64,000 bases of DNA from Eledone cirrhosa (GCA_964016885.1 OZ024743.1:343666001-343730000), one strand, 5' to 3'. Numbered from the stretch's first letter, positions 26,756 through 62,365 are shown. Notes: generated from the sequence alone by a model not told the origin. Numbers and translations: made by a program.

Positions 26756-26821
<66 letters not shown>
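26756..26821. repeat. (ATT)22 tract upstream of Tx1-like copy 1
   Basis: Direct observation. Confidence 0.95.
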
Positions 26822-29134: not shown

Positions 29135-29169
29135 GTGGTCTTTCCCATCTTTTCCACTCTATTTTAAAC

Positions 29170-32589: not shown

Positions 32590-32850
32590 ACTAAAGGTGG
32601 AAAACTGGGAGAGGGCACTTGCCTTGGTGGTCAGGGTCATTGTGGCTTTTTACTGGGCTTTCTCCACAAATGTCCCTCCGAAGTCTCCCCCCTATTGGGG
32701 AATTTTTCATTGTTATTTTCATTGTTATTTTTGTTACATCCTCTATTTTTGTTTTTTTTACACGCAGAAATGCCCATTTGTACCGTCCTGCATTGTCCTG
32801 CACTGTCCTTAATGTCTACTTTATGTAAACCCTTGTGGTTAATAAAGAAA

Positions 32851-32912
<62 letters not shown>

Positions 32913-36515: not shown

Positions 36516-36803
36516 ACGAACAAACAAATAGGTAAAACAAACAAACAAATAGGTAAAACCCCCCCAAAATAAGCATAAGTTTCATAGTAATATATTTGAA
36601 TGTCTGACTTAGTTTTTCTTGCTTGTCTGTCTGTCTGTTTGTTTTTCTTTTCTTTTTTCTTTTCTTTTCTTTACGTTTTTCGTTGCTGCTGTGCTGTTTT
36701 GATTTTGATTTTTGATTTTTTGATTTTTTGACCGGGTCATCAAATCAGTCTATTTATATCTTTTGATGCCTTCCTCATTTAGTGGGATTACTATGATGTC
36801 TGT

Positions 36804-36949
36804 CTTAGCAGGAGGTAGTGGGAGAGAATAGCGGCGGTAGCGATAATGAGGCAGTGGCGGTGGTGGTGATGTGCTAGTAGTACTTAGCAGGAGGTAGTGG
36901 GAGAGAATAGCGGCGGTAGCGATAATGAGGCAGTGGTGGTGGTGATGTG
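36804..36949. repeat. Local tandem duplication, ~79-bp period
   Basis: cttagcaggaggtagtgggagagaatagcggcggtagcgataatgaggcagtgg occurs at 36804 and 36883. Confidence 0.85.
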
Positions 36950-37087
36950 ATCGTAGTGCTGTAGTGATGGTGTTGAAGTTGACGTAGAAATAGAAGTTGA
37001 GGTAACTTGACTAGAGTTTTGGCGTGGTAGTGGTGATAGTGGCGGTGGTGGTGTTGGTGGTGTTGGTGGTGAAATTATTTGCCTGTC

Positions 37088-37945
37088 TGCTGACCAGTCT
37101 GTACCGGAGGACTTTTGAGCCGGGAACGATGGACAATTTCAAGAAATCCCTCGCTTGGCAGTGCTACCGGGGGGCACTGCCGGCTCGGGATAAACTCTAC
37201 AGGCACGGAAGTGCTGTCAGACGGACCTGCCCAAGTTGCGCACAGAACGACGAAACCGTTCTGCACGCACTTGTCCAATGTCCGTGCATTACTGACTTGT
37301 GGAGTTATGTCGAACAGCTACTGTCGCGTGTGGAACGAATCCGGCTATCGGCCGAGTCCATAGTGAAGATCGATCCACCGCCTTCCTTAGGTCAGGAAGA
37401 GCAGGAAATTTTCCTCTGTCTGGTGGCAGTTGCGAAAGAGATTATATGGTGGACCAGGTTGAAAGGACTAAAGACAGACATTTTTCTCTTCGGCCAATCC
37501 CTCATCAATTTCTTCAAGTTTCACCTGGAAAGGAAGGTGAGGGTGGAGAGAGAAGTGCTTCCCCCCAGTATATTTGCTAAAAGGTGGGTGAATGTGGCGA
37601 GAATGGCTCGTGTGAATGGGCCTACTCTGACCATGCGCCTATAGGCTAGCTAACTTGAGGAGAGGGGTTCTCTCCCTGGGTGCCCTAGAAGCGCAGGGTG
37701 GTTCAGGATTGGTGGGGTACCCGAATCACCCCAGGGTCGTCCACCCTCTATCGGGGAATTTATTTTGTTATTTTTATGCATAGTTTATTTTATATTTTTA
37801 TATTTTCATTGTTAAATTAGTCTTGCCATTGTGCCTCTTTTACTCGACCTTATTGTAAACCCCCACTGTCCCTGCCTTTGTATTGTCCCCTACATGTCGG
37901 CCCTTGTGGCTAATAAATGAAATCATTATTATTATTATTATTATT
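37088..37945 (+). mobile_element. 5'-truncated diverged relative of the Tx1-like family, tail (ATT)7
   Basis: RTFEPGTMDNFKKSLAWQCYRGALP...ARMARVNGPTL aligns to the ORF2 C-terminus; different 3' UTR but ends cccttgtggctaataaatgaaatc(att)n. Confidence 0.92.
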
Positions 37946-38158
37946 GAATGCCATGGTTGACGGAGGCTCGGCTCTGTAAGGTATAGTAATTTTTAACCGT
38001 TAAAACAATTGTAAATTGTTTAAAACTTGAACCAAATTGTTGATAAAGACACCCTCCTCCTCGTGAGAGGGGTCTTTCTGTCCGTTATTTGGCCCTTCGG
38101 GGTTAAATAACCAGTTATTGGGGTTTTGTACCCAAAATTTCATTTTAAACAAAAAAAC

Positions 38159-40255
38159 ATGGCTACCAAAAAGAAATTTCATACGTCACTCCCACTCATT
38201 CCGTCTTCTTCTTCCACAATCATCACTACAGCAGAGAGAAGATTGTCTCTCTCCCTCCCTTCTTTAAATGTGTCTCTCTCCCTCCCTTCTCTTTCGCAAG
38301 TGACGAAAGAAAAGAAAAGTCTCGTGCAAAGCGTGCAAGGTTTCTCCACGACGACGACGACAGCGACGAAACAGGTGTGCGGGAAATACGAAAACCCAGT
38401 TCATTCGTCTGACGTCAGGAATAATAGCAGTAGCAGCCGTAATAACAACAGCAACAGTGACAATGAAAACAACAGTAGCAGCCGCAACAGCATCACCAGC
38501 AGCATAAACAACAACAGCATTAGCAGCAGCAACACCAACAACAACCACAGCAACAGCGGCGGAGGCAGTAGTCGTAGTACCTGCAGCAACAACAAAAGTA
38601 CCAGCAGCTCTGACGACAACAACAACAGCAGAGAAAAACCAATCTCATTTGCAGGTATTGCGAAAAATTTGGAAACAATCCTCATAACAAATGAGGAATT
38701 AGAGGAAGCGAAGAAGATGGTGACAAAGAACGGACACCGAGCAATCTGCAAGGCAGCGAAAAATTTTTTCGAAACCCAAGAGCACTGTACGGTCACGTAC
38801 CGTACAGTAAGTACAAAATCCCGTAGGGTGGAAAGAGCCACAGAGGCCCAAATACAAAAAGCCTTGGGGTCTGTGTGGCAGCGGAAAACGCACATCACCC
38901 GAGGCAAAAAATATGCCACCGTAGACGTACTTTTTGCCACACCCCAGGAGGCAAAGGCCCAATCAGTAGTGACCCTAAGGAGCGAGGAAATGGTGTTGGC
39001 GCCCTCCTACTGTGGGCAAAAAATTGTGAGGGTCAAACTGACCCACGTCCCCCCCGGAATGACCCCTTCTTGGCTGGCCGCGTCTGTCCTCGTCGGAATC
39101 GAGGACAAAACAACTGTACTGCAAGTACAGAAAAAAGTAAGAGAAGATTGGGTCGGCTCCTCCATTGAGATGCTAATCCAAACCAACCAGGAGTGCATCG
39201 AAGCTATCCCGGATGTGATAGACTTCGATAACGGCACTCAACTGCCCATAAGTGTTGAGGGCAAACGCCCGAAATGCTTTCGCTGTGGATCGAAGACTCA
39301 CCTCAGGGCCTTCTGCAACGAGAAGACCCTGAGAAAGGAGAAAACCCCCCTCCTTCCGAATCCGGCTCCACGGCTACCAGCAACAGGACAAGCGGCAACC
39401 AGGAACGATAGGCCCGTGGCACCCATACCCACTCCACGGAAATCAAAAACAGCAGCAGCAGTGGAAATACTAACAACAACAACAGCAATACCAAATGCAG
39501 CTGCAACAGAGACTCCAGTGCAAACATCACCAACAACAACAAGTGAAAGAGTGGAGTTGGTACCCCTCCCCGACCTCACAGAATCAGACATGGAGTGTGA
39601 GGTGGGAGAGAGATGGCAAAAGGTCGTAAGAAGGCACAAACGCAGAAGCAGCGCATCGTCGCCTTTGAAAAGTGAGGAAAGAAATGAGAAAAGGGTAAAG
39701 TCTACTGCAAAGAGACCCACAGCAGCAACAACACCAACACCATCACCACCCACACTAGCGCCACCATCACCACCGGCGACAACCCCACCGCCAACAACAC
39801 CTTCAACACCACCACCACAAGCACCAACATCGCAAACACAACAACAAAACACACACACCCAGCAACAACGACAAGAAAATAGCAGAACCACACCCCACCC
39901 CCAGAAAAACAAATGCACGGCAATAAATACACACAACAAGAAACTAATGACTTACATAATTGAACACACAGACATTTCACAACAGGACTACATAATACCA
40001 GCACCAATCAAAACGCCAACTAACATAAGACTGCTAAAAATAGCACAGAAACAATACACAAATATTAAAACGAAATTCCCCAACGCAGTTGGTGATTTCA
40101 GGGACCTAGGAGGAACCATCAATCGAAGAGTATACTCAGACATTCTCTTAGAAGAGCCGACGACCAGCCGAAGGGACGATTCAACGGTCCCTTCACCAGA
40201 CGATCAAGTGAAAAGGGATGTAAAAACCATCCCTCCTCTACCAAAAGTACGGTAA
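38159..40255 (+). CDS. ORF1p copy 2
   Basis: Near-identical to copy 1 ORF1. Confidence 0.85.
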   Translation: MATKKKFHTSLPLIPSSSSTIITTAERRLSLSLPSLNVSLSLPSLSQVTKEKKSLVQSVQGFSTTTTTATKQVCGKYENPVHSSDVRNNSSSSRNNNSNSDNENNSSSRNSITSSINNNSISSSNTNNNHSNSGGGSSRSTCSNNKSTSSSDDNNNSREKPISFAGIAKNLETILITNEELEEAKKMVTKNGHRAICKAAKNFFETQEHCTVTYRTVSTKSRRVERATEAQIQKALGSVWQRKTHITRGKKYATVDVLFATPQEAKAQSVVTLRSEEMVLAPSYCGQKIVRVKLTHVPPGMTPSWLAASVLVGIEDKTTVLQVQKKVREDWVGSSIEMLIQTNQECIEAIPDVIDFDNGTQLPISVEGKRPKCFRCGSKTHLRAFCNEKTLRKEKTPLLPNPAPRLPATGQAATRNDRPVAPIPTPRKSKTAAAVEILTTTTAIPNAAATETPVQTSPTTTSERVELVPLPDLTESDMECEVGERWQKVVRRHKRRSSASSPLKSEERNEKRVKSTAKRPTAATTPTPSPPTLAPPSPPATTPPPTTPSTPPPQAPTSQTQQQNTHTQQQRQENSRTTPHPQKNKCTAINTHNKKLMTYIIEHTDISQQDYIIPAPIKTPTNIRLLKIAQKQYTNIKTKFPNAVGDFRDLGGTINRRVYSDILLEEPTTSRRDDSTVPSPDDQVKRDVKTIPPLPKVR

Positions 40256-40290
40256 GTGGTCTTTCCCATCTTTTCCACTCTATTTTAAAC

Positions 40291-43200
40291 ATGACCTCAC
40301 TCAGAATAGGCAGCATAAATGCGCGTGGCTTGGGGTCGTCATGGAAGCAGGGTCACCTGCTCAACGACCTCAGGTCACTAAACATAGATGTAGTGGCCAT
40401 CAGCGAGACCAGAATCTCCGAAGCACGGGCCTTCGCACCGATCTTCGGCGGCTTCGATGTGTACGCATCTCCCAGCCGTCCTGGATCCGGTGGAGGAGTT
40501 GCTGTGCTTTTTCGGAGAGGTTTGGATCTCGCCATACGGGCCATCTTCCTGGACCCAGAGGGTAAGCTGGTGGTGCTGGACGTGACCAGCGGAGACGGGC
40601 AAGCTTTCAGGCTAGTGGCCGTCTATGCCCCGACAGGAGCAGGGCGGCCTGATTTCTTCCGGCGTCTGGAGACCTTTCTTGGAACGTCCCGCTCTTTAGT
40701 GTTAGTGGGCGACTGGAACGGGATCTTAGATGCACGCTGGGACTGTGTGGGATTAGCGGATAGGGGTGGAGGGTGCAAGAGCCTCACCAACCTGCTCAGG
40801 CGTTTTGAACTGTCTGACAGGTACCGATTGGATTTCCCGAATGTGCCAATGTGGACTTGGACAAACCGCATAGGGTCATCCAGATCATATCTAGATAGAG
40901 TATTTTGTAGGGAAATAGATAGGTCTAGCATAGGCTGTCCACAATTCAAGATAGTCAGCTACACGGACCACAAATTCGTGATCTGTGTGCTTGACTTAGA
41001 TAGGCTTCATAGACGAGGACCCGGCTACTGGAAGCTAAACGCGTCCTTACCAGCGCGCAAGGCCTACAGAGACCGGATTAGCGAACTAGTTAAGCGGGCG
41101 TTGACGGGGGCCATCGTCAACAACAAGTGGTGGTTTGCTCTGAAAAGAGCGATTAGAATAGAATCGATTAGGTTTAGTAAGGCTTTAGCAATAGAGAAAA
41201 ATAGAGCAGAGGGAGAACTAGTTAGAAAATTAGACGAGGCGCTTAGCAAAGGCATTGCGACCGACGTGCTTGCGGCGAAATTGGCCCTTGACCAATTCTT
41301 CAATGCAAAGCACGAAGGCTGCGTTGTCAGAGCTAGGGTGCGTGCTCTCAGACACGAGGGGACGAAAGCCGTTCAATGGGCCCGAGTGGCGGAGGCGCGT
41401 CGTGGCAACAAAGCCACGATCCGGTCTTTGGTGGACCACGACGGGCGCATGCTACTCGATCCCGGGCAAATGTGTGAAGCTTTTCAGCGACACTTCGCTC
41501 AGCTGTTCGGGGGCAGCGGGGGGCCGGGTAGAGGGATGGACTTTAGTGTCTACCTCGACGGACTGCCGCGGCTCTCGGCCACTGAGGCGAAGTGTTGCGA
41601 AAAGCCGATAACAGCCGCTGAAGTACGGGAGGCAATGACTGGCTGCACAAGGGGTAAATCGCCTGGTTTGGATGGTCTGCCCTATGAACTTTACGTACAG
41701 ATGCCAGACTTGTTCGGAGGCCTCTTGGCGGACGTCTACTGCAACTGGCAACAGAACGGGAGAATTCCCAGTTCTGTGAGCCGAGGAGCGGTGGCACTGC
41801 TGAGAAAGGATCCGAACAAGGGGGATAACATAGACAATTTCCGGCCCATAACTCTGCTAAACACAGAGTTTAAGATTTTGGCCAAGGTGCTAGCAAAGAG
41901 GTTGGCGCTTGTCGTTGGTGGTCTGGTGGGAGAGGCGCAGACATGCGCCATTCCCGACAGATCCATCCACGACAACCTCCACCTCATGCGATACATCGTA
42001 GAGAGGGTAGCTAGGGAACCTGGCACGGGTGGGTCCTTGATCAATTTAGATCAGTCGAAAGCTTTCGATAGGGTCGACCATCGTTACCTAGCGGCAGTCC
42101 TGAGGGCGGCTGGCTTTGGGCCCGTCTTCAGAGGCTGGATCGCTGCCATGCACAGCGACATCTGCTCTGTGGTGAGAGTGAACGGTCACCTGTCGGAACC
42201 GTTCAACATCATGCGCTCGGTCCGCCAAGGATGTCCCCTCTCGTCCCTCTTGTACGTATTGACTCTCGAGCCATTACTGCACAAACTGGAGACGTTGAGG
42301 GGAGTCCCGCGCGAACTAGGATGCGGAAGATCCGTGTCAGCATATGCGGACGATGTCACCGTAGTGGTGTCGAACGCCAAACACATCGAGGCGATCGGCA
42401 CTACACTAAGAGAATACGAAGCGGTGACAGGAGCAATGATCAACCAGGAAAAGTCAGTGGGCCTGCAGCTCGGCACCTGGAGAGGCAGGTCCATGCCGTC
42501 CAACAGCGTCGTCGGGCGCTGGACGGACGGACCGGTTAAATTGCTAGGGGTCTGGTTCGGTCCGGACCTCCAGACGGACAAAAACTGGGACGAGGTGACG
42601 AGCAGGGTGGCTTCTCTCACCCAGAAATGGGCGGAGAGGAAGCTATCCCTGAAAGGTCGAGCGGAGGTGGCTAACGCGTACATCGCGTCTGTCATCTGCT
42701 ACCGCCTAACCGTCGTACCTTGTCCTAAGCCTCGCCTGACTGCGCTGGAGCGTTTGCTCTTTCGCTTTTTGTGGAAGGGACGTGCTCCGATGGTCAGGCG
42801 GTCCATCTGTTGTCAACACCCGCTACGTGGAGGGCTGGGCATGCCGTGGCTGATGATGCGCAGGCACGCGCTCAGGCTACGACATCTCCACCTCTTCCTC
42901 GACGGTGATCAGGTGTGGTCGCCTTTTGCTAGACGCGTTTTTCCCCAGCTCGTTTCCTTGACGGAGCTGCAGTCCTGGGTCAAGCGAAGACCGAGAGGGA
43001 GCGCCTGGAGACTGGAATGTCTTCAGGCGCTCACAGCCCTCGACCAATCGGGCAATGTGATCGGTGGAAACTCCACCTCGGCGTTCTATAGAGGATTAGT
43101 GGAGGGGAAGAGCGACGACGTACTTGGGGAAACTCTAGGCGTCGACGAAAATCAACTAGCCAATCTCTTCGGAAGAACTTTCGGGCCGGGGCCTATGGAC

Positions 43201-43710
43201 AACTTCCAGAAATCTCTGGCCTGGCAGTGCTACCGAGGAGCCTTGCCAGTTCGGGATAAACTCTACAGGCATGGAGGTGCCGTCAGCCGGGCATGTCCGA
43301 GATGCGCGCAGGGCGACGAAACCGTCCTGCACGCACTCGTCCAGTGTCCGAAAATTGCTGACTTGTGGGTTTATGTCGAACACCTGCTGTCGCGTTTAGG
43401 ACGGATCCAGCTATCATCTGAGTCTATCGTGAGGATTGCCCCGCCCTCCTCCTTTAGCCGGGAAGGGCAGGCAGTTTTTATCTGTCTGGTGGCCATGGCG
43501 AAAGAGATAGTATGGTGGACACGTTTGAAAGGGCTGAAGACGAGCACTTACCTCTTCGGTGATGCTCTGATTGACTTTTTCAAATTTCATTTGAAAAGGA
43601 AAATCAGAGTAGAGAAGGAAGTGCTCTCTTCCCAGCATTTTGTTGAAAGATGGGTGAGAGAAGCAAGAATGGCCCGAGTGAATGGGCCGACTCTGAGTAT
43701 ATATCTGTAA
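40291..43710 (+). CDS. ORF2p copy 2 (APE-RT-CCHC)
   Basis: 1139 aa, same motifs. Confidence 0.97.
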   Translation: MTSLRIGSINARGLGSSWKQGHLLNDLRSLNIDVVAISETRISEARAFAPIFGGFDVYASPSRPGSGGGVAVLFRRGLDLAIRAIFLDPEGKLVVLDVTSGDGQAFRLVAVYAPTGAGRPDFFRRLETFLGTSRSLVLVGDWNGILDARWDCVGLADRGGGCKSLTNLLRRFELSDRYRLDFPNVPMWTWTNRIGSSRSYLDRVFCREIDRSSIGCPQFKIVSYTDHKFVICVLDLDRLHRRGPGYWKLNASLPARKAYRDRISELVKRALTGAIVNNKWWFALKRAIRIESIRFSKALAIEKNRAEGELVRKLDEALSKGIATDVLAAKLALDQFFNAKHEGCVVRARVRALRHEGTKAVQWARVAEARRGNKATIRSLVDHDGRMLLDPGQMCEAFQRHFAQLFGGSGGPGRGMDFSVYLDGLPRLSATEAKCCEKPITAAEVREAMTGCTRGKSPGLDGLPYELYVQMPDLFGGLLADVYCNWQQNGRIPSSVSRGAVALLRKDPNKGDNIDNFRPITLLNTEFKILAKVLAKRLALVVGGLVGEAQTCAIPDRSIHDNLHLMRYIVERVAREPGTGGSLINLDQSKAFDRVDHRYLAAVLRAAGFGPVFRGWIAAMHSDICSVVRVNGHLSEPFNIMRSVRQGCPLSSLLYVLTLEPLLHKLETLRGVPRELGCGRSVSAYADDVTVVVSNAKHIEAIGTTLREYEAVTGAMINQEKSVGLQLGTWRGRSMPSNSVVGRWTDGPVKLLGVWFGPDLQTDKNWDEVTSRVASLTQKWAERKLSLKGRAEVANAYIASVICYRLTVVPCPKPRLTALERLLFRFLWKGRAPMVRRSICCQHPLRGGLGMPWLMMRRHALRLRHLHLFLDGDQVWSPFARRVFPQLVSLTELQSWVKRRPRGSAWRLECLQALTALDQSGNVIGGNSTSAFYRGLVEGKSDDVLGETLGVDENQLANLFGRTFGPGPMDNFQKSLAWQCYRGALPVRDKLYRHGGAVSRACPRCAQGDETVLHALVQCPKIADLWVYVEHLLSRLGRIQLSSESIVRIAPPSSFSREGQAVFICLVAMAKEIVWWTRLKGLKTSTYLFGDALIDFFKFHLKRKIRVEKEVLSSQHFVERWVREARMARVNGPTLSIYL

Positions 43711-44207
43711 ACTAAAGGTGGAAAACTGGGAGAGGGCACTTGCCTTGGTGGTCAGGGTCATTGTGGCTTTTTACTGGGCTTTCTCCACAAATGTCCCTCC
43801 GAAGTCTCCCCCCTATTGGGGAATTTTTCATTGTTATTTTCATTGTTATTTTTGTTACATCCTCTGTTTTTGTTTTTTTTACACGCAGAAATGCCCATTT
43901 GTACCGTCCTGCATTGTCCTGCACTGTCCTTAATGTCTACTTTATGTAAACCCTTGTGGTTAATAAAGAAATCATTATTATTATTATTATTATTGAATGC
44001 CATGGTTGACGGAGGCTCGGCTCTGTAAGGTATAGTAATTTTTAACCGTTAAAACAATTGTAAATTGTTTAAAACTTGAACCAAATTGTTGATAAAGACA
44101 CCCTCCTCCTCGTGAGAGGGGTCTTTCTGTCCGTTATTTGGCCCTTCGGGGTTAAATAGCCAGTTATTGGGGTTTTGTACCCAAAATTTCATTTTAAACA
44201 AAAAAAC

Positions 44208-46307
44208 ATGGCTACCAAAAAAAAAAAATTTCACACGTCACTCCCACTCATTCCGTCTTCTTCTTCCTCAATCATCACTACAGGAGAGAGAAGATTGTCT
44301 CTCTCCCTCCCTTCTTTAAATGTGTCTCTCTCCCTACCTTCTCTTTCGCAAGCGACGAAAGAAAAGAAAAGTCTCGTGCAAAGCGTGCAAGGTTTCTCCA
44401 CGACGACGACGACAGCGACGAAACAGGTGTGCGGGAAATACGAAAACCCAGTTCATTCGTCTGACGTCAGGAATAATAGCAGTAGCAGCCGTAATAACAA
44501 CAGCAACAGTGACAATGAAAACAACAGTAGCAGCCGCAACAGCATCACCAGCAGCATAAACAACAACAGCATTAGCAGCAGCAACACCAACAACAACCAC
44601 AGCAACAGCGGCGGAGGCAGTAGTCGTAGTACCTGCAGCAACAACAAAAGTACCAGCAGCTCTGACGACAACAACAACAGCAGAGAAAAACCAATCTCAT
44701 TTGCAGGTATTGCGAAAAACCTGGAAACAATCCTCATAACAAATGAGGAATTAGAGGAAGCGAAGAAGATGGTGACAAAGAACGGACACCGAGCAATCTG
44801 CAAGGCAGCGAAAAATTTTTTCGAAACCCAAGAGCACTGTACGGTCACGTACCGTACAGTAAGTACAAAATCCCGTAGGGTGGAAAGAGCCACAGAGGCC
44901 CAAATACAAAAAGCCTTGGGGTCTGTGTGGCAGAGGAAAACGCACATCACCCGAGGCAAAAAATACGCCACCGTAGACGTACTTTTTGCCACACCCCAGG
45001 AGGCAAAGGCCCAATCAGTAGTGACCCTAAGGAGCGAGGAAATGGTGTTGGTGCCCTCCTACTGCGGGCAAAAAATTGTGAGGGTCAAACTGACCCACGT
45101 CCCCCCCGGAATGACCCCTTCTTGGCTGGCCGCGTCTGTCCTCGTCGGAATCGAGGACAAAACAACTGTACTGCAAGTACAGAAAAAAGTAAGAGAAGAT
45201 TGGGTCGGCTCCTCCATTGAGATGCTAATCCAAACCAACCAGGAGTGCATCGAAGCTATCCCGGATGTGATAGACTTCGATAACGGCACTCAACTGCCCA
45301 TAAGTGTTGAGGGCAAACGCCCGAAATGCTTTCGCTGTGGATCGAAGACTCACCTCAGGGCCTTCTGCAACGAGAAGACCCTGAGAAAGGAGAAAACCCC
45401 CCTCCTCCCGAATCCGGTTCCACGGCTACCAGCAACAGGACAAGCGGCAACCAGGAACGATAGGTCCGTGGCACCCATACCCACTCCACGGAAATCAAAG
45501 ACAGCAGCAGCAGTGGAAATATTAACAACAACAACAGCAATACCAAATGCAGCTGCAACAGAGACTCCAGTGCAAACATCACCAACAACAACAAGTGAAA
45601 GAGTGGAGCTGGTACCCCTCCCCGACCTTACAGAATCAGACATGGAGTGTGAGGTGGGAGAGGGATGGCAAAAGGTCTCAAGAAGGCACAAACGCAGAAG
45701 CAGCGCATCGTCGCCTTTGAAAAGGGAGGAAAGAAATGAGAAAAGGGTAAAGTCTACTGCAAAGAGACCCACAGCAGCAACACCACCAACACCATCACCA
45801 CCCACACCAGCACCACCATCACCACCGGCGACAACCCCACCGCCAACAACACCTTCAACACCACCACCACAAGCACCAACATCGCAAACACAACAACAAA
45901 ACACACACACCCAGCAACAACGACAAGAAAATAGCAGAACCACACCCCACCCCCAGAAAAACAAATGCACGGCAATAAACACACACAACAAGAAACTAAT
46001 GACTTACATAATTGAACACACAGACATTTCACAACAGGACTACATAATACCAGCACCAATCAAAACGCCAACTAACATAAGACTGCTAAAAATAGCACAG
46101 AAACAATACACAAACATTAAAACGAAATTCCCCAACGCAGTTGGTGATTTCAGGGACCTAGGAGGAACCATTAATCGAAGAGTATATTCAGACATTCTCT
46201 TAGAAGAGCCGACGACCAGCCGAAGGGACGATTCAACGGTCCCTTCACCAGACGATCAAGTGAAAAGGGATGTAAAAACCATCCCTCCTCTACCAAAAAT
46301 ACGGTAA
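44208..46307 (+). CDS. ORF1p copy 3
   Basis: Translation appears identical to copy 1 ORF1. Confidence 0.85.
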   Translation: MATKKKKFHTSLPLIPSSSSSIITTGERRLSLSLPSLNVSLSLPSLSQATKEKKSLVQSVQGFSTTTTTATKQVCGKYENPVHSSDVRNNSSSSRNNNSNSDNENNSSSRNSITSSINNNSISSSNTNNNHSNSGGGSSRSTCSNNKSTSSSDDNNNSREKPISFAGIAKNLETILITNEELEEAKKMVTKNGHRAICKAAKNFFETQEHCTVTYRTVSTKSRRVERATEAQIQKALGSVWQRKTHITRGKKYATVDVLFATPQEAKAQSVVTLRSEEMVLVPSYCGQKIVRVKLTHVPPGMTPSWLAASVLVGIEDKTTVLQVQKKVREDWVGSSIEMLIQTNQECIEAIPDVIDFDNGTQLPISVEGKRPKCFRCGSKTHLRAFCNEKTLRKEKTPLLPNPVPRLPATGQAATRNDRSVAPIPTPRKSKTAAAVEILTTTTAIPNAAATETPVQTSPTTTSERVELVPLPDLTESDMECEVGEGWQKVSRRHKRRSSASSPLKREERNEKRVKSTAKRPTAATPPTPSPPTPAPPSPPATTPPPTTPSTPPPQAPTSQTQQQNTHTQQQRQENSRTTPHPQKNKCTAINTHNKKLMTYIIEHTDISQQDYIIPAPIKTPTNIRLLKIAQKQYTNIKTKFPNAVGDFRDLGGTINRRVYSDILLEEPTTSRRDDSTVPSPDDQVKRDVKTIPPLPKIR

Positions 46308-46342
46308 GTGGTCTTTCCCATCTTTTCCACTCTATTTTAAAC

Positions 46343-49300
46343 ATGACCTCACTCAGAATAGGCAGCATAAATGCGCGTGGCTTGGGGTCGTCATGGAAGC
46401 AGGGTCACCTGCTCAACGACCTCAGGTCACTAAACATAGATGTAGTGGCCATCAGCGAGACCAGAATCTCCGAAGCACGGGCCTTCGCACCGATCTTCGG
46501 CGGCTACGATGTGTACGCATCTCCCAGCCGTCCTGGATCGGGTGGAGGAGTTGCTGTGCTTTTTCGGAGAGGTTTGGATCTCGCCATACGGGCCATCTTC
46601 CTGGACCCAGAGGGTAAGCTGGTGGTGCTGGACGTGACCAGCGGAGACGGGCAAGCTTTCAGGCTAGTGGCCGTCTATGCCCCGACAGGAGCAGGGCGGC
46701 CTGATTTCTTCCGGCGTCTGGAGACCTTTCTTGGAACGTCGCGCTCTTTAGTGTTAGTGGGCGACTGGAACGGGATCTTAGATGCACGCTGGGACTGTGT
46801 GGGATTAGCGGATAGGGGTGGAGGGTGCAAGAGCCTCACCAACCTGCTCAGGCGTTTTGAACTGTCTGACAGGTACCGATTGGATTTCCCGAATGTGCCA
46901 ATGTGGACTTGGACAAACCGCATAGGGTCATCCAGATCATATCTAGATAGAGTATTTTGTAGGGAAATAGATAGGTCTAGCATAGGCTGTCCACAATTCA
47001 AGATAGTCAGCTACACGGACCACAAATTCGTGATCTGTGTGCTTGACTTAGATAGGCTTCATAGACGAGGACCCGGCTACTGGAAGCTAAACGCGTCCTT
47101 ACCAGCGCGCAAGGCCTACAGAGACCGGATTAGCGAACTAGTTAAGCGGGCGTTGACGGGGGCCATCGTCAACAACAAGTGGTGGTTTGCTCTGAAAAGA
47201 GCGATTAGAATAGAATCGATTAGGTTTAGTAAGGCTTTAGCAATAGAGAAAAATAGAGCAGAGGGAGAACTAGTTAGAAAATTAGACGAGGCGCTTAGCA
47301 AAGGCATTGCGACCGACGTGCTTGCGGCGAAATTGGCCCTTGACCAATTCTTCAATGCAAAGCACGAAGGCTGCGTTGTCAGAGCTAGGGTGCGTGCTCT
47401 CAGACACGAGGGGACGAAAGCCGTTCAATGGGCCCGAGTGGCGGAGGCGCGTCGTGGCAACAAAGCCACGATCCGGTCTTTGGTGGACCACGACGGGCGC
47501 ATGCTACTCGATCCCGGGCAAATGTGTGAAGCTTTTCAGCGACACTTCGCTCAGCTGTTCGGGGGCAGCGGGGGGCCGGGTAGAGGGATGGACTTTAGTG
47601 TCTACCTCGACGGACTGCCGCGGCTCTCGGCCACTGAGGCGAAGTGTTGCGAAAAGCCGATAACAGCCGCTGAAGTAAGGGAGGCAATGACTGGCTGCAC
47701 AAGGGGTAAATCGCCTGGTTTGGATGGTCTGCCCTATGAACTTTACGTACAGATGCCAGACTTGTTCGGAGGCCTCTTGACGGACGTCTACTGCAACTGG
47801 CAACAGAACGGGAGAATTCCCAGTTCTGTGAGCCGAGGAGCGGTGGCACTGCTGAGAAAGGATCCGAACAAGGGGGATAACATAGACAATTTCCGGCCCA
47901 TAACTCTGCTAAACACAGAGTTTAAGATTTTGGCCAAGGTGCTAGCAAAGAGGTTGGCGCTTGTCGTTGGTGGTCTGGTGGGAGAGGCGCAGACATGCGC
48001 CATTCCCGACAGATCCATCCACGACAACCTCCACCTCATGCGATACATCGTAGAGAGGGTAGCTAGGGAACCTGGCACGGGTGGGTCCTTGATCAATTTA
48101 GATCAGTCGAAAGCTTTCGATAGGGTCGACCATCGTTACCTAGCGGCAGTCCTGAGGGCGGCTGGCTTTGGGCCCGTCTTCAGAGGCTGGATCGCTGCCA
48201 TGCACAGCGACATCTGCTCTGTGGTGAGAGTGAACGGTCACCTGTCGGAACCGTTCAACATCATGCGCTCGGTCCGCCAAGGATGTCCCCTCTCGTCCCT
48301 CTTGTACGTATTGACTCTCGAGCCATTACTGCACAAACTGGAGACGTTGAGGGGAGTCCCGCGCGAACTAGGATGCGGAAGATCCGTGTCAGCATATGCG
48401 GACGATGTCACCGTAGTGGTGTCGAACGCCAAACACATCGAGGCGATCGGCACTACACTAAGAGAATACGAAGCGGTGACAGGAGCAATGATCAACCAGG
48501 AAAAGTCAGTGGGCCTGCAGCTCGGCACCTGGAGAGGCAGGTCCATGCCGTCCAACAGCGTCGTCGGGCGCTGGACGGACGGACCGGTTAAATTGCTAGG
48601 GGTCTGGTTCGGTCCGGACCTCCAGACGGACAAAAACTGGGACGAGGTGACGAGCAGGGTGGCTTCTCTCACCCAGAAATGGGCGGAGAGGAAGCTATCC
48701 CTGAAAGGTCGAGCGGAGGTGGCTAACGCGTACATCGCGTCTGTCATCTGCTACCGCCTAACCGTCGTACCTTGTCCTAAGCCTCGCCTGACTGCGCTGG
48801 AGCGTTTGCTCTTTCGCTTTTTGTGGAAGGGACGTGCTCCGATGGTCAGGCGGTCCATCTGTTGTCAACACCCGCTACGTGGAGGGCTGGGCATGCCGTG
48901 GCTGATGATGCGCAGGCACGCGCTCAGGCTACGACATCTCCACCTCTTCCTCGACGGTGATCAGGTGTGGTCGCCGTTTGCTAGACGCGTTTTTCCCCAG
49001 CTCGTTTCCTTGACGGAGCTGCAGTCCTGGGTCAAGCGAAGACCGAGAGGGAGCGCCTGGAGACTGGAATGTCTTCAGGCGCTCACAGCCCTCGACCAAT
49101 CGGGCAATGTGATCGGTGGAAACTCCACCTCGGCGTTCTATAGAGGATTAGTGGAGGGGAAGAGCGACGACGTACTTGGGGAAACTCTAGGCGTCGACGA
49201 AAATCAACTAGCCAATCTCTTCGGAAGAACCTTCGGGCCAGGGCCTATGGACAACTTCCAGAAATCTCTGGCCTGGCAGTGCTACCGAGGAGCCTTGCCA

Positions 49301-49762
49301 GTTCGGGATAAACTCTACAGGCATGGAGGTGCCGTCAGCCGGGCATGTCCGAGATGCGCGCAGGGCGACGAAACCGTCCTGCACGCACTCGTCCAGTGTC
49401 CGAAAATTGCTGACTTGTGGGTTTATGTCGAACACCTGCTGTCGCGTTTAGGACGGATCCAGCTATCATCTGAGTCTATCGTGAGGATTGCCCCGCCCTC
49501 CTCCTTTAGCCGGGAAGGGCAGGCAGTTTTTATCTGTCTGGTGGCCATGGCGAAAGAGATAGTATGGTGGACACGTTTGAAAGGGCTGAAGACGAGCACT
49601 TACCTCTTCGGTGATGCTCTGATTGACTTTTTCAAATTTCATTTGAAAAGGAAAATCAGAGTAGAGAAGGAAGTGCTCTCTTCCCAGCATTTTGTTGAAA
49701 GATGGGTGAGAGAAGCAAGAATGGCCCGAGTGAATGGGCCGACTCTGAGTATATATCTGTAA
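46343..49762 (+). CDS. ORF2p copy 3 (APE-RT-CCHC)
   Basis: 1139 aa, same motifs. Confidence 0.97.
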   Translation: MTSLRIGSINARGLGSSWKQGHLLNDLRSLNIDVVAISETRISEARAFAPIFGGYDVYASPSRPGSGGGVAVLFRRGLDLAIRAIFLDPEGKLVVLDVTSGDGQAFRLVAVYAPTGAGRPDFFRRLETFLGTSRSLVLVGDWNGILDARWDCVGLADRGGGCKSLTNLLRRFELSDRYRLDFPNVPMWTWTNRIGSSRSYLDRVFCREIDRSSIGCPQFKIVSYTDHKFVICVLDLDRLHRRGPGYWKLNASLPARKAYRDRISELVKRALTGAIVNNKWWFALKRAIRIESIRFSKALAIEKNRAEGELVRKLDEALSKGIATDVLAAKLALDQFFNAKHEGCVVRARVRALRHEGTKAVQWARVAEARRGNKATIRSLVDHDGRMLLDPGQMCEAFQRHFAQLFGGSGGPGRGMDFSVYLDGLPRLSATEAKCCEKPITAAEVREAMTGCTRGKSPGLDGLPYELYVQMPDLFGGLLTDVYCNWQQNGRIPSSVSRGAVALLRKDPNKGDNIDNFRPITLLNTEFKILAKVLAKRLALVVGGLVGEAQTCAIPDRSIHDNLHLMRYIVERVAREPGTGGSLINLDQSKAFDRVDHRYLAAVLRAAGFGPVFRGWIAAMHSDICSVVRVNGHLSEPFNIMRSVRQGCPLSSLLYVLTLEPLLHKLETLRGVPRELGCGRSVSAYADDVTVVVSNAKHIEAIGTTLREYEAVTGAMINQEKSVGLQLGTWRGRSMPSNSVVGRWTDGPVKLLGVWFGPDLQTDKNWDEVTSRVASLTQKWAERKLSLKGRAEVANAYIASVICYRLTVVPCPKPRLTALERLLFRFLWKGRAPMVRRSICCQHPLRGGLGMPWLMMRRHALRLRHLHLFLDGDQVWSPFARRVFPQLVSLTELQSWVKRRPRGSAWRLECLQALTALDQSGNVIGGNSTSAFYRGLVEGKSDDVLGETLGVDENQLANLFGRTFGPGPMDNFQKSLAWQCYRGALPVRDKLYRHGGAVSRACPRCAQGDETVLHALVQCPKIADLWVYVEHLLSRLGRIQLSSESIVRIAPPSSFSREGQAVFICLVAMAKEIVWWTRLKGLKTSTYLFGDALIDFFKFHLKRKIRVEKEVLSSQHFVERWVREARMARVNGPTLSIYL

Positions 49763-50023
49763 ACTAAAGGTGGAAAACTGGGAGAGGGCACTTGCCTTGG
49801 TGGTCAGGGTCATTGTGGCTTTTTACTGGGCTTTCTCCACAAATGTTCCTCCGAAGTCTCCCCCCTATTGGGGAATTTTTCATTGTTATTTTCATTGTTA
49901 TTTTTGTTACATCCTCTATTTTTGTTTTTTTTACACGCAGAAATGCCCATTTGTACCGTCCTGCATTGTCCTGCACTGTCCTTAATGTCTACTTTATGTA
50001 AACCCTTGTGGTTAATAAAGAAA

Positions 50024-50061
<38 letters not shown>

Positions 50062-50274
50062 GAATGCCATGGTTGACGGAGGCTCGGCTCTGTAAGGTAT
50101 AGTAATTTTTAACCGTTAAAACAATTGTAAATTGTTTAAAACTTGAACCAAATTGTTGATAAAGACACCCTCCTCCTCGTGAGAGGGGTCTTTCTGTCCG
50201 TTATTTGGCCCTTCGGGGTTAAATAACCAGTTATTGGGGTTTTGTACCCAAAATTTCATTTTAAACAAAAAAAC

Positions 50275-52366
50275 ATGGCTACGAAAAAGAAATTTCATAC
50301 GTCACTCCCACTCATTCCGTCTTCTTCCTCAATCATCACTACAGCAGAGAGAAGATCGTCTCTCTCCCTCCCTTCTTTAAATGTGTCTCTCTCCCTCCCT
50401 TCTCTTTCGCAAGCGACGAAAGAAAAGAAAAGTCTCGTGCAAAGCGTGCAAGGTTTCTCCACGACGACGACGACAGCGACGAAACAGGTGTGCGGGAAAT
50501 ACGAAAACCCAGTTCATTCGTCTGACGTCAGGAATAATAGCAGTAGCAGCCGTAATAACAACAGCAACAGTGACAATGAAAACAACAGTAGCAGCCGCAA
50601 CAGCATCACCAGCAGCATAAACAACAACAGCATTAGCAGCAGCAACACCAACAACAACCACAGCAACAGCGGCGGAGGCAGTAGTCGTAGTACCTGCAGC
50701 AACAAAAGTACCAGCAGCTCTGACGACAACAACAACAGCAGAGAAAAACCAATCTCATTTGCAGGTATTGCGAAAAACTTGGAAACAATCCTCATAACAA
50801 ATGAGGAATTAGAGGAAGCGAAGAAGATGGTGACAAAGAACGGACACCGAGCAATCTGCAAGGCAGCGAAAAATTTTTTCGAAACCCAAGAGCACTGTAC
50901 GGTCACGTACCGTACAGTAAGTACAAAATCCCGTAGGGTGGAAAGAGCCACAGAGGCCCAAATACAAAAAGCCTTGGGGTCTGTGTGGCAGAGGAAAACG
51001 CACATCACCCGAGGCAAAAAATACGCCACCGTAGACGTACTTTTTGCCACACCCCAGGAGGCAAAGGCCCAATCAGTAGTGACCCTAAGGAGCGAGGAAA
51101 TGGTGTTGGTGCCCTCCTACTGCGGGCAAAAAATTGTGAGGGTCAAACTGACCCACGTCCCCCCCGGAATGACCCCTTCTTGGCTGGCCGCGTCTGTCCT
51201 CGTCGGAATCGAGGACAAAACAACTGTACTGCAAGTACAGAAAAAAGTAAGAGAAGATTGGGTCGGCTCCTCCATTGAGATGCTAATCCAAACCAACCAG
51301 GAGTGCATCGAAGCTATCCCGGATGTGATAGACTTCGATAACGGCACTCAACTGCCCATAAGTGTTGAGGGCAAACGCCCGAAATGCTTTCGCTGTGGAT
51401 CGAAGACTCACCTCAGGGCCTTCTGCAACGAGAAGACCCTGAGAAAGGAGAAAACCCCCCTCCTTCCGAATCCGGCTCCACGGCTACCAGCAACAGGACA
51501 AGCGGCAACCAGGAACGATAGGTCCGTGGCACCCATACCCACTCCACGGAAATCAAAGACAGCAGCAGCAGTGGAAATATTAACAACAACAACAGCAATA
51601 CCAAATGCAGCTGCAACAGAGACTCCAGTGCAAACATCACCAACAACAACAAGTGAAAGAGTGGAGCTGGTACCCCTCCCCGACCTTACAGAATCAGACA
51701 TGGAGTGTGAGGTGGGAGAGGGATGGCAAAAGGTCGCAAGAAGGCACAAACGCAGAAGCAGCGCATCGTCGCCTTTGAAAAGGGAGGAAAGAAATGAGAA
51801 AAGGGTAAAGTCTACTGCAAAGAGACCCACAGCAGCAACAACACCAACACCATCACCACCCACACTAGCAGCCACCATCACCACCGGCGACAACCCCACC
51901 GCCAACAACACCTTCAACACCACCACCACAAGCACCAACATCGCAAACACAACAACAAAACACACACACCCAGCAACAACGACAAGAAAATAGCAGAACC
52001 ACACCCCACCCCCAGAAAAACAAATGCACGGCAATAAATACACACAACAAGAAACTAATGACTTACATAATTGAACACACAGACATTTCACAACAGGACT
52101 ACATAATACCAGCACCAATCAAAACGCCAACTAACATAAGACTGCTAAAAATAGCACAGAAACAATACACAAATATTAAAACGAAATTCCCCAACGCAGT
52201 TGGTGATTTCAGGGACCTAGGAGGAACCATCAATCGAAGAGTATACTCAGACATTCTCTTAGAAGAGCCGACGACCAGCCGAAGGGACGATTCAACGGTC
52301 CCTTCACCAGACGATCAAGTGAAAAGGGATGTAAAAACCATCCCTCCTCTACCAAAAGTACGGTAA
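50275..52366 (+). pseudogene. ORF1 copy 4 with a +1 frameshift near 51870
   Basis: cacactagcAgccacc versus cacactagcgccacc in copy 2; ORF splits into 50242-51993 and 52058-52366. Confidence 0.85.
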
Positions 52367-52401
52367 GTGGTCTTTCCCATCTTTTCCACTCTATTTTAAA
52401 C

Positions 52402-55400
52402 ATGACCTCACTCAGAATAGGCAGCATAAATGCGCGTGGCTTGGGGTCGTCATGGAAGCAGGGTCACCTGCTCAACAACCTCAGGTCACTAAACATAGAC
52501 GTAGTGGCCATCAGCGAGACCAGAATCTCCGAAGCACGGGCCTTCGCACCGATCTTCGGCGGCTACGATGTGTACGCATCTCCCAACCGTCCTGGATCGG
52601 GGGGAGGAGTTGCTGTGCTTTTTCGGAGAGGTTTGGATCTCGCCATACGGGCCATCTTCCTGGACCCAGAGGGTAAGCTGGTGGTGCTGGACGTGACCAG
52701 CGGAGACGGGCAAGCTTTCAGGCTAGTGGCCGTCTATGCCCCGACAGGAGCAGGGCGGCCTGATTTCTTCCGGCGTCTGGAGACCTTTCTTGGAACGTCC
52801 CGCTCTTTAGTGTTAGTGGGCGACTGGAACGGGATCTTAGATGCACGCTGGGACTGTGTGGGATTAGCGGATAGGGGTGGAGGGTGCAAGAGCCTCACCA
52901 ACCTGCTCAGGCGTTTTGAACTGTCTGACAGGTACCGATTGGATTTCCCGAATGTGCCAATGTGGACTTGGACAAACCGCATAGGGTCATCCAGATCATA
53001 TCTAGATAGAGTATTTTGTAGGGAAATAGATAGGTCTAGCATAGGCTGTCCACAATTCAAGATAGTCAGCTACACGGACCACAAATTCGTGACCTGTGTG
53101 CTTGACTTAGATAGGCTTCATAGACGAGGACCCGGCTACTGGAAGCTAAACGCCTCCTTACCAGCGCGCAAGGCCTACAGAGACCGGATTAGCGAACTAG
53201 TTAAGCGGGCGTTGACGGGGGCCATCGTCAACAACAAGTGGTGGTTTGCTCTGAAAAGAGCGATTAGAATAGAATCGATTAGGTTTAGTAAGGCTTTAGC
53301 AATAGAGAAAAATAGAGCAGAGGGAGAACTAGTTAGAAAATTAGACGAGGCGCTTAGCAAAGGCATTGCGACCGACGTGCTTGCGGCGAAATTGGCCCTT
53401 GACCAATTCTTCAATGCAAAGCACGAAGGCTGCGTTGTCAGAGCTAGGGTGCGTGCTCTCAGACACGAGGGGACGAAAGCCGTTCAATGGGCCCGAGTGG
53501 CGGAGGCGCGTCGTGGCAACAAAGCCACGATCCGGTCTTTGGTGGACCACGACGGGCGCATGCTACTCGATCCCGGGCAAATGTGTGAAGCTTTTCAGCG
53601 ACACTTCGCTCAGCTGTTCGGGGGCAGCGGTGGGCCGGGTAGAGGGATGGACTTTAGTGTCTACCTCGACGGACTGCCGCGGCTCTCGGCCACTGAGGCG
53701 AAGTGTTGCGAAAAGCCGATAACAGCCGCTGAAGTAAGGGAGGCAATGACTGGCTGCACAAGGGGTAAATCGCCTGGTTTGGATGGTCTGCCCTATGAAC
53801 TTTACGTACAGATGCCAGACTTGTTCGGAGGCCTCTTGGCGGACGTCTACTGCAACTGGCAACAGAACGGGAGAATTCCCAGTTCTGTGAGCCGAGGAGC
53901 GGTGGCACTGCTGAGAAAGGATCCGAACAAGGGGGATAACATAGAAAATTTCCGGCCCATAACTCTGCTAAACACAGAGTTTAAGATTTTGGCCAAGGTG
54001 CTAGCAAAGAGGTTGGCGCTTGTCGTTGGTGGTCTGGTGGGAGAGGCGCAGACATGCGCCATTCCCGACAGATCCATCCACGACAACCTCCACCTCATGC
54101 GATACATCGTAGAGAGGGTAGCTAGGGAACCTGGCACGGGTGGGTCCTTGATCAATTTAGATCAGTCGAAAGCTTTCGATAGGGTCGACCATCGTTACCT
54201 AGCGGCAGTCCTGAGGGCGGCTGGCTTTGGGCCCGTCTTCAGAGGCTGGATCGCTGCCATGCACAGCGACATCTGCTCTGTGGTGAGAGTGAACGGTCAC
54301 CTGTCGGAACCGTTCAACATCATGCGCTCGGTCCGCCAAGGATGTCCCCTCTCGTCCCTCTTGTACGTATTGACTCTCGAGCCATTACTGCACAAACTGG
54401 AGACGTTGAGGGGGGTCCCGCGCGAACTAGGATGCGGAAGATCCGTATCAGCATATGCGGACGATGTCACCGTAGTGGTGTCGAACGCCAAACACATCGA
54501 GGCGATCGGCACTACACTAAGAGAATACGAAGCGGTGACAGGAGCAATGATCAACCAGGAAAAGTCAGTGGGCCTGCAGCTCGGCACCTGGAGAGGCAGG
54601 TCCATGCCGTCCAACAGCGTCGTCGGACGCTGGACGGACGGACCGGTTAAATTGCTAGGGGTCTGGTTCGGTCCGGACCTCCAGACGGACAAAAACTGGG
54701 ACGAGGTGACGAGCAGGGTGGCTTCTCTCACCCAGAAATGGGCCGAGAGGAAGCTATCCCTGAAAGGTCGAGCGGAGGTGGCTAACGCGTACATCGCGTC
54801 CGTCATCTGCTACCGCCTGACCGTCGTACCTTGTCCTAAGCCTCGCCTGACTGTGCTGGAGCGTTTGCTCTTTCGCTTTTTGTGGAAGGGACGCGCTCCG
54901 ATGGTCAGGCGGTCCATCTGTTGTCAACACCCGCTACGTGGAGGGCTGGGCATGCCGTGGCTGATGATGCGCAGGCACGCGCTCAGGCTACGACATCTCC
55001 ACCTCTTCCTCGACGGTGATCAGGTGTGGTCGCCGTTTGCTAGACGCGTGTTTCCCCAGCTCGTTTCCTTGACGGAGCTGCAGTCCTGGGTCAAGCGAAG
55101 ACCGAGAGGGAGCGCCTGGAGACTGGAATGTCTTCAGGCGCTCACAGCCCTCGACCAATCGGGCAATGTGATCGGTGGAAACTCCACCTCGGCGTTCTAT
55201 AGAGGATTAGTGGAGGGGAAGAGCGACGACGTACTTGGGGAAACTCTAGGCGTCGACGAAAATCAACTAGCCAATCTCTTCGGAAGAACTTTCGGGCCAG
55301 GGCCTATGGACAACTTCCAGAAATCTCTGGCCTGGCAGTGCTACCGAGGAGCCTTGCCAGTTCGGGATAAACTCTACAGGCATGGAGGTGCCGTCAGCCG

Positions 55401-55821
55401 GGCATGTCCGAGATGCGCGCAGGGCGACGAAACCGTCCTGCACGCACTCGTCCAGTGTCCGAAAATTGCTGACTTGTGGGTTTATGTCGAACACCTGCTG
55501 TCGCGTTTAAGACGGATCCAGCTATCATCTGAGTCCATCGTGAGGATTGCCCCGCCCTCCTCCTTTAGCCGGGAAGGGCAGGCAGTTTTTATCTGTCTGG
55601 TGGCCATGGCGAAAGAGATAGTATGGTGGACACGTTTGAAAGGGCTGAAGACGAGCACTTACCTCTTCGGTGATGCTCTGATTGACTTTTTCAAATTTCA
55701 TTTGAAAAGGAAAATCAGAGTAGAGAAGGAAGTGCTCTCTTCCCAGCATTTTGTTGAAAGATGGGTGAGAGAAGCAAGAATGGCCCGAGTGAATGGGCCG
55801 ACTCTGAGTATATATCTGTAA
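52402..55821 (+). CDS. ORF2p copy 4 (APE-RT-CCHC)
   Basis: 1139 aa, several private substitutions. Confidence 0.97.
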   Translation: MTSLRIGSINARGLGSSWKQGHLLNNLRSLNIDVVAISETRISEARAFAPIFGGYDVYASPNRPGSGGGVAVLFRRGLDLAIRAIFLDPEGKLVVLDVTSGDGQAFRLVAVYAPTGAGRPDFFRRLETFLGTSRSLVLVGDWNGILDARWDCVGLADRGGGCKSLTNLLRRFELSDRYRLDFPNVPMWTWTNRIGSSRSYLDRVFCREIDRSSIGCPQFKIVSYTDHKFVTCVLDLDRLHRRGPGYWKLNASLPARKAYRDRISELVKRALTGAIVNNKWWFALKRAIRIESIRFSKALAIEKNRAEGELVRKLDEALSKGIATDVLAAKLALDQFFNAKHEGCVVRARVRALRHEGTKAVQWARVAEARRGNKATIRSLVDHDGRMLLDPGQMCEAFQRHFAQLFGGSGGPGRGMDFSVYLDGLPRLSATEAKCCEKPITAAEVREAMTGCTRGKSPGLDGLPYELYVQMPDLFGGLLADVYCNWQQNGRIPSSVSRGAVALLRKDPNKGDNIENFRPITLLNTEFKILAKVLAKRLALVVGGLVGEAQTCAIPDRSIHDNLHLMRYIVERVAREPGTGGSLINLDQSKAFDRVDHRYLAAVLRAAGFGPVFRGWIAAMHSDICSVVRVNGHLSEPFNIMRSVRQGCPLSSLLYVLTLEPLLHKLETLRGVPRELGCGRSVSAYADDVTVVVSNAKHIEAIGTTLREYEAVTGAMINQEKSVGLQLGTWRGRSMPSNSVVGRWTDGPVKLLGVWFGPDLQTDKNWDEVTSRVASLTQKWAERKLSLKGRAEVANAYIASVICYRLTVVPCPKPRLTVLERLLFRFLWKGRAPMVRRSICCQHPLRGGLGMPWLMMRRHALRLRHLHLFLDGDQVWSPFARRVFPQLVSLTELQSWVKRRPRGSAWRLECLQALTALDQSGNVIGGNSTSAFYRGLVEGKSDDVLGETLGVDENQLANLFGRTFGPGPMDNFQKSLAWQCYRGALPVRDKLYRHGGAVSRACPRCAQGDETVLHALVQCPKIADLWVYVEHLLSRLRRIQLSSESIVRIAPPSSFSREGQAVFICLVAMAKEIVWWTRLKGLKTSTYLFGDALIDFFKFHLKRKIRVEKEVLSSQHFVERWVREARMARVNGPTLSIYL

Positions 55822-56081
55822 ACTAAAGGTGGAAAACTGGGAGAGGGCACTTGCCTTGGTGGTCAGGGTCATTGTGGCTTTTTACTGGGCTTTCTCCACA
55901 AATGTTCCTCCGAAGTCTCCCCCCTATTGGGGAATTTTTCATTGTTATTTTCATTGTTATTTTTGTTACATCCTCTGTTTTTGTTTTTTTACACGCAGAA
56001 ATGCCCATTTGTACCGTCCTGCATTGTCCTGCACTGTCCTTAATGTCTACTTTATGTAAACCCTTGTGGTTAATAAAGAAA

Positions 56082-56137
<56 letters not shown>

Positions 56138-62283: not shown

Positions 62284-62365
62284 ATGTATGTATGTGAGTA
62301 TGCATTTATGTATGTATGTATGTATGTATGTATGTATGTATGTATGTATGTATGTATGTATGTAT

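Follow-up and report, generated by a model that had tools for sequence, protein, structure and literature searches.

A young L1-group LINE, likely of the Tx1 clade, found almost exclusively in (ATT)n tracts of the Eledone cirrhosa genome and stacked there in head-to-tail arrays

Microsatellite-specific families of Tx1 elements have been described for TC, TTC and TTCC/TTTC repeats (Kibi, Koshi and the crocodilian Tx1 elements; PMC4494074, PMC3812793). The LINE analyzed here shares with them the APE-type, two-ORF organization and the specificity for a microsatellite, but differs in its (ATT)n target, its cephalopod host and its thousands of young copies. The arrangement of these copies resembles the R1 tandem arrays in the rDNA of Drosophila, where new insertions use the duplicated target next to the 5' end of a resident element (PMC2718515, bioRxiv 158386). 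In both cases, a site-specific APE LINE forms head-to-tail copies that are spaced by target DNA, with later unequal exchange, which here would concern some arrays. However, the target in our case is a dispersed microsatellite, the duplications measure 18-59 bp, and upstream copies often carry the 5' sequence of their neighbour, a trait that is not described for R1 in the accessible parts of these sources. The R1 tandem array is a closer analogue than the arrays at Drosophila telomeres, with which the original prediction had compared this locus, and the LINE may be considered to work like R1 arrays with a target of the Kibi/Koshi type. Sequential insertion around a duplicated target has also been reported for SINEU-3, whose tandem insertions by the Tx1 machinery sandwich a target-site duplication (PMC4494074), although SINEU-3 is non-autonomous and its target is a Mariner element.

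The same microsatellite is known as the target of Dong (R4 clade), which occupies TAA repeats in silkworm, mosquito and snail (PMC3812793); Dong/R4-like families share the tracts in the genome studied here, but on the opposite strand. Recent activity of 13 L1-Tx1 families (421 recent insertions) and five Dong-R4 families was reported in Octopus vulgaris (PMC13282606), and activity of both groups in this species is also documented in PMC8967140. Our LINE or a relative may be among these families, whose targets, arrays and junctions are not described in the accessible text of PMC13282606. Templated or chimeric insertions of human L1 have been attributed to an SDSA-like pairing of the cDNA with nearby homologous DNA (bioRxiv 2024.08.27.596794). 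There, as proposed here, the growing cDNA pairs with and duplicates nearby homologous DNA, but the human events are rare, short (<250 bp) and come from tumours, whereas those in E. cirrhosa would be kilobase-long, frequent and inherited. Neither an ATT/TAA-specific Tx1 element nor a study of LINE targets in cephalopods was found in the open-access literature. Targeting of microsatellites by Tx1 elements and LINE arrays with duplications as spacers are both on record; new are apparently the ATT target for an APE LINE and the first cephalopod case in the literature searched.

The window, i.e., the whole stretch of 64,000 nucleotides that was analyzed (GCA_964016885.1, OZ024743.1:343666001-343730000), contains the following features:

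26756..26821, plus strand: (ATT)22, left tract of copy 1
26822..32852, plus strand: LINE copy 1, full length, 6031 nt, starts GAATGCCATGG, ends AATAAAGAAATC
32853..32912, plus strand: (ATT)20, right tract of copy 1 and 3' tract of the opposite-strand Dong/R4-like LINE
32913..37090, minus strand: decayed LINE, probably Dong/R4-like, ends in (AAT)n; left boundary exact, right boundary approximate
37105..37924, plus strand: 3' fragment of the sister Tx1-like family, ~77% identical, ends AATAAATGAAATC before (ATT)7
37925..37945, plus strand: (ATT)7, left tract of copy 2, directly 3' of the end of the sister-family fragment
37946..43973, plus strand: LINE copy 2, 6028 nt, starts GAATGCCATGG, ends AATAAAGAAATC
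43974..43994, plus strand: (ATT)7 spacer between copies 2 and 3, probably duplicated target
43995..50025, plus strand: LINE copy 3, 6031 nt, starts GAATGCCATGG, ends AATAAAGAAATC
50026..50061, plus strand: (ATT)12 spacer between copies 3 and 4
50062..56083, plus strand: LINE copy 4, 6022 nt, starts GAATGCCATGG, ends AATAAAGAAATC
56084..56131, plus strand: (ATT)16, right tract of the array

Four full-length copies of ~6.03 kb that start after ATT and end in (ATT)n had been predicted, and all four are present, but the interval assigned to them holds only copies 2-4, copy 1 being located upstream at 26822-32852. The coordinates bear out that copies 2-4 lie in the same orientation and are joined by (ATT)7 and (ATT)12. 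The ATT runs before copies 1-4 comprise 22, 7, 7 and 12 units and those after them 20, 7, 12 and 16 units. Copies 1 and 3 differ by six substitutions, while 42 separate copies 2 and 3, 41 copies 3 and 4, and 43 copies 2 and 4; indels between copies 2-4 come in addition, and each of them is more closely related to a copy elsewhere in the genome. Three substitutions separate copy 1 from a dispersed copy located on another contig, and copy 3, after nt 164, shows four differences from a dispersed copy. Adjacent copies of the window belong to different source lineages, and copy 3 appears to be the youngest of the array, placed between two older copies. That the array is an assembly expansion, which the original prediction had named as a reason to abandon it, or a single recent DNA duplication is therefore highly improbable, even if it is seen as assembled sequence and one identical adjacent pair is known in another array: the 41-43 substitutions and the nearer relatives elsewhere argue for an array built serially from independent sources.

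Seven of the eight ORFs are open, as had been predicted, the exception being the frameshifted ORF1 of copy 4:

27035-29134, plus strand: copy 1 ORF1, 699 aa
29170-32589, plus strand: copy 1 ORF2, 1139 aa
38159-40255, plus strand: copy 2 ORF1, 698 aa
40291-43710, plus strand: copy 2 ORF2, 1139 aa
44208-46307, plus strand: copy 3 ORF1, 699 aa
46343-49762, plus strand: copy 3 ORF2, 1139 aa
frameshifted by a 1-nt insertion near 51,870, plus strand: copy 4 ORF1, 572 aa
52402-55821, plus strand: copy 4 ORF2, open, 1139 aa

The Pfam matches of ORF2 were Exo_endo_phos (APE), RVT_1 and a C-terminal zf-RVT, and its best PDB matches were L1 EN and L1 ORF2p. In ORF2 of copy 3, the APE catalytic motifs are found at N10, E39, Y112, D141, N143, D202, D226 and H227 and the RT motif YADD at 685. 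The nearest named RT, that of Argonauta hians, is 73% identical, followed by cuttlefish (50%) and by turtle, teleost and sea cucumber (~40%); over the RT region, teleost and turtle proteins (~1,300 aa, not named Tx1) reached 213-338 bits and human L1, which is far more distant, 89 bits, the latter with another search tool and database. Matches in the ESM Atlas were confined to generic RT/APE clusters, and a single-sequence AlphaFold model of the APE had a pLDDT of 37. With APE, RT and a C-terminal zinc motif in ORF2 and a separate ORF1, the element is a non-LTR retrotransposon of the L1 group, and it also displays the 5'-truncated copies and target-site duplications of this group. A Pfam search of ORF1 returned no match. 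A CCHC zinc knuckle in ORF1 is a feature of the Tx1 clade, and this trait is present here as CFRCGSKTHLRAFC (CX2CX4HX4C) at aa 374 of copy 3 ORF1; membership of the LINE in the Tx1 clade is likely. According to Kojima, a Tx1 family counts as target-specific if more than 20% of its flanks share one sequence type (as given in PMC4494074); in our case, 97.8% of the 5' ends do. The target is ATT and not the TC or TTC of the Kibi/Koshi lineage, CTT in targets of the LINE being confined to compound tracts.

The original prediction of a young family with coding potential holds. Median pairwise divergence was 1.11% (73 copies), and both ORFs were open in 60 of 112 near-full-length copies, a sample biased to intact 5' ends and to contigs 1 and 2; the tree as drawn omits seven old copies. 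The pN/pS ratio of ORF2 was 0.12 for variants common to at least five copies versus 0.72 for private ones. The family is young and has more than 1,500 intact 5' starts in the genome.

Across the 3.0 Gb of the genome searched, with 5' ends counted as exact 31-nt matches, (ATT)3 in phase precedes 1,529 of the 1,564 exact 5' ends, and not a single 5' end follows (AAT)3, the opposite-strand pattern, so the association with ATT is not due to chance. All of the first 30 5' flanks carry at least five ATT units, and (ATT)3 stands directly after 2,972 of 3,582 3' ends. The surplus of 3' ends (3,582 versus 1,564 5' ends) indicates many 5'-truncated copies. Head-to-tail junctions number at least 395, with gaps of 11-41 nt. 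The genome-wide tabulation of flanks, proposed earlier as a check, thus gave ATT at both ends, with phase and strand fixed for full-length 5' ends, and a majority of non-ATT 5' flanks, which would have spoken against the original prediction, was not observed. Its further claim that (ATT)n is cut in a fixed phase and strand stands as far as one-strand targeting is concerned; the fixed 5' phase, however, need not be the phase of the cut. Among 11 sampled truncated copies with a visible 5' junction, six follow an ATT run, in mixed phases and with 1-3 nt of microhomology, and the fixed phase of full-length copies may therefore reflect annealing of the 5' end rather than the cut.

In public sequencing data, 20 runs contain the element or part of it, 13 of them with half or more of its words; none of those listed is an RNA run. 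Contigs from two other organisms cover the element, one at ~99% identity and one deeply at 90-99%. When four public runs were aligned to copy 1, no joint of an empty site was seen; contigs broke at the tracts, and the raw-read run amounted to three reads.

The LINE shares its tracts with other elements. The sister family has 2,240 5' ends genome-wide, and all 30 sampled lie after ATT. Two Dong/R4-like LINEs occupy the same tracts on the opposite strand, the one present in the window with 2,695 exact 3'-end matches across the genome. RT remnants, a weak zf-RVT match and a PD-(D/E)xK-like motif read by eye suggest that the opposite-strand LINE of the window belongs to this type; for the Dong-like ORF, no match was obtained in the PDB. 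The endonuclease of Dong is restriction-like and not of the APE type. In the review PMC3812793, Dong-type elements are called APE-type. A short element, designated SINE-like from its length, ends and recurrence, is found in the same ATT tracts, and ARAGORN detected no tRNA in five loci bearing it. Of the first 30 long ATT tracts, 27 adjoin the LINE family, the sister family, the opposite-strand Dong/R4-like LINEs or the SINE. Among (ATT)11 tracts preceded by a base other than T, 2,133 of 13,743 follow AATAAAGAAATC. The original term self-targeting, understood as a preference, is not borne out: a Tx1-like 3' end precedes 32 of 90 5' ends and stands on the left of nine of 30 sampled long tracts, and no self-preference beyond this share of the target was seen. 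Stacking thus appears to result from a saturated target and not from self-recognition.

How the target is regenerated can be read from the spacers. Altogether 42 junctions were examined, 17 with marked (interrupted) and 25 with pure spacers, in arrays picked partly for marked spacers and with pairs within an array not independent. Thirteen of the 17 marked spacers (five of eight arrays) are an exact suffix, 24-59 bp long, of the left flank of the upstream copy and leave room for 0-3 ambiguous added units (seven in one case); the other four are not whole suffixes. An array of nine copies and a 2.1-kb 5' fragment (~57 kb; G000:C1:441.09-441.14 Mb) repeats a 51-bp imperfect target that serves as its left flank as well; the identity of its copies to copy 3 decreases from 99.5-99.7% upstream to 98.0% downstream. 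The original prediction that each insertion supplies a fresh target is upheld with regard to regeneration, but not with regard to an element-encoded (ATT)n tail: since the marked spacers mostly equal the left-flank target with nothing added, it is mainly the target-site duplication that regenerates the target.

It seems unlikely that an RNA (AUU)n tail, copied at each insertion, supplies most of the new target, as first envisaged. Such a tail would agree with right tracts exceeding left ones in 32 of 36 young copies (medians 16 versus 8; copies with more than 15 singletons excluded, 46 of 64 kept, and of these the 36 without a following copy), an asymmetry that copy 1, with 22 units on the left and 20 on the right, does not show. 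Nicking at the left edge of long tracts, however, explains longer right tracts without a tail. Where a young copy faces a Dong-like 3' end, the tract between them is also longer than un-invaded Dong tracts (median 20 in nine hand-listed cases versus 7.5 in 18; p=0.0002), a difference compatible both with added units and with a preference for long tracts, and 10 of the 25 pure spacers exceed the left tract, as expected if the downstream copy is newer, or with a tail. An AATAAA located 12 nt before the end of copy 3 makes a few read-through AUU units likely, and some added ATT units in pure tracts are possible. On the other hand, target DNA accounts fully for the 13 marked spacers, three junctions read AAATC|GTT without ATT after AAATC, the old full-length copies L064 and L065 have a single ATT each, and tracts between copies and a following sister family B match un-invaded B tracts in length (p=0.62; 5 versus 21 cases).

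Besides the spacers, the copies themselves carry traces of their neighbours. At least 1,000 nt of identical 5' sequence is shared by 13 of 34 adjacent pairs (8 of 19 arrays), versus 0.56% of 4,302 random pairs, from which copies with more than 25 singletons were excluded (94 of 112 kept). In 10 of these 13 pairs, the rest of the upstream copy is nearer to a dispersed copy than to any array mate, which suggests that a new cDNA often uses the resident neighbour for its completion. Array-private variants fall within the first 2 kb in 33 of 46 cases, versus 31% of singletons. One array of three is nested, with identity reaching nt 1291 between copies 2 and 3 and nt 592 between copies 1 and 2; its last copy is much older. 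Among the 14 pairs that share a prefix of 450 nt or more without being identical, the polarity of age was mixed: private changes in the upstream 3' part were fewer in six, more in four and equal in four. The array of the window, with a shared prefix of only 164 nt, gives no sign of neighbour copying.

The shared 5' segments and the repeated marked spacers might instead have arisen after insertion, through gene conversion or unequal crossover of neighbouring copies, with nicks within the tracts as a possible trigger, so that only the targeting and simple double insertion would hold. R1 arrays are thought to expand in this way (bioRxiv 158386, in its accessible part), shared 3' ends are likewise enriched, if more weakly (4 of 34 adjacent pairs versus 1.3%), copies 1 and 2 of array D234 are identical, and array B90, where copy 3 combines the 5' part of copy 4 with the 3' part of copy 2 between equal spacers, fits unequal crossover. 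We nevertheless regard exchange of this kind as an improbable general explanation: several arrays (L069, C179, P178, L133) have a chimeric copy even at their most upstream position, the 3' parts match dispersed copies in the 10 of 13 pairs mentioned, and the spacers of one array differ in their left ends (51, 36, 30; 39, 24 bp) but have a single right end. The simplest reading is a cDNA that, primed in the left tract, enters the resident copy and copies its 5' part together with the tract, which would also account for long duplications that end exactly at ATT|GAATG.

We therefore favour, with moderate confidence, a reading in which a young L1-group and likely Tx1-clade LINE, inserted almost only into (ATT)n on one strand, makes a nick in the AAT strand close to the 5' edge of a long tract, duplicates its target so that a usable tract would be left by every insertion, stacks head-to-tail and is often completed on a neighbour. 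The APE would nick near the left edge of a tract of ~11 or more triplets, and the RNA end (...AAUC, followed by no more than a few AUU units of the donor tract, read through past AATAAA) would pair with the primer, so that no poly(A) is copied. The 5' end would be joined via homology, at solitary sites to the ATT top strand, so that ~6-9 units would remain to the left of the insertion and the entire tract to its right. A subsequent copy might land right behind the old 3' end and produce spacers of 6-10 units, an example being copy 3, which lies between copies 2 and 4. With a resident copy just downstream, the cDNA would probably invade this neighbour and copy its 5' part and tract back to the nick, giving rise to target duplications of 24-59 bp ending at ATT|GAATG, to chimeric upstream copies and to arrays growing mostly at their 5' side; some arrays may have expanded further by unequal exchange. 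More tentatively, and at somewhat less than even chances, the comparison of copies could mean that neighbour completion is a routine route of germline integration, that polar, dispersed arrays of up to at least nine full copies record the order of insertion, and that the LINE competes with the Dong-like LINEs, the sister family and the SINE in a near-saturated (ATT)n niche that all of them help to multiply.

A young family with many open-ORF copies is well suited to the study of how an APE reads a repeat, and the interrupted tracts provide natural tags for 5' joining, the poorly understood second half of LINE integration. The genome-scale record of these tags suggests that the cDNA is finished on homologous neighbouring DNA. 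The results further imply that a small number of competing elements has largely shaped the (ATT)n markers and LINE hotspots of octopus genomes.

An array of the main LINE considered here lies on contig 1 of the genome and comprises nine full copies together with one 5'-only piece of 2,120 nt, which is joined to the array's 51-bp target and possibly arose by internal priming at an ATT-like site. Elsewhere on this contig, two adjoining copies differ at 0 positions, and a repeated left flank lies nearby; the pair either was duplicated recently or is locally misassembled.

G000:C1:441,086,500-441,143,100, minus strand: main-LINE array (sampled loci L161-L164, L201, L202, L208)
G000:C1:234.58-234.62 Mb: identical main-LINE pair (L171, L172, L207)

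The 3' flank of locus L102 shows a tail-to-tail pair in which the tract changes from (ATT)4 to (AAT)n, as predicted by strand-specific targeting.

The window itself carries further mobile elements.

4040-9977, minus strand: Ty3/gypsy-type LTR element, with direct repeats and ORFs
6073-6951: its integrase ORF
8550-9419: its gag-like ORF, matching DUF7041
17590-23729: inverted repeats around a broken R4/Dong-like LINE
19049-20182 and 20394-21068: ORFs of that LINE

The 500-bp direct repeats of the Ty3/gypsy-type element are 98% identical, and its pol appears broken. The inverted repeats (688 bp, 95% identity) enclose a LINE sharing 43% identity over 117 aligned aa with the Dong-like element at 33209. 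An imperfect, MITE-like palindrome of about 440 bp (10347-10789) and a degenerate GT/GGT repeat of 2.8 kb with extreme strand skew (57251-60048) were also observed. Positions 62365-63260 hold a decayed piece from the 3' end of a further sister family (77% identity), and no ATT tract is left behind it.

In the public sequencing run X5, from organism B, one contig path at a depth of 6-10 spans nearly the whole main LINE with about 99% identity; organism B could be a closely related species, the sample could be of another type that contains host DNA, or the element could have been transferred.

Finally, a SINE-like element of about 190 nt starts after (ATT)n and ends in AAAGTAGAAACA(ATT)n.

L048:1571-1760 (also in L093 and L147): SINE-like element

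It is likely a non-autonomous passenger of the Tx1-like families.
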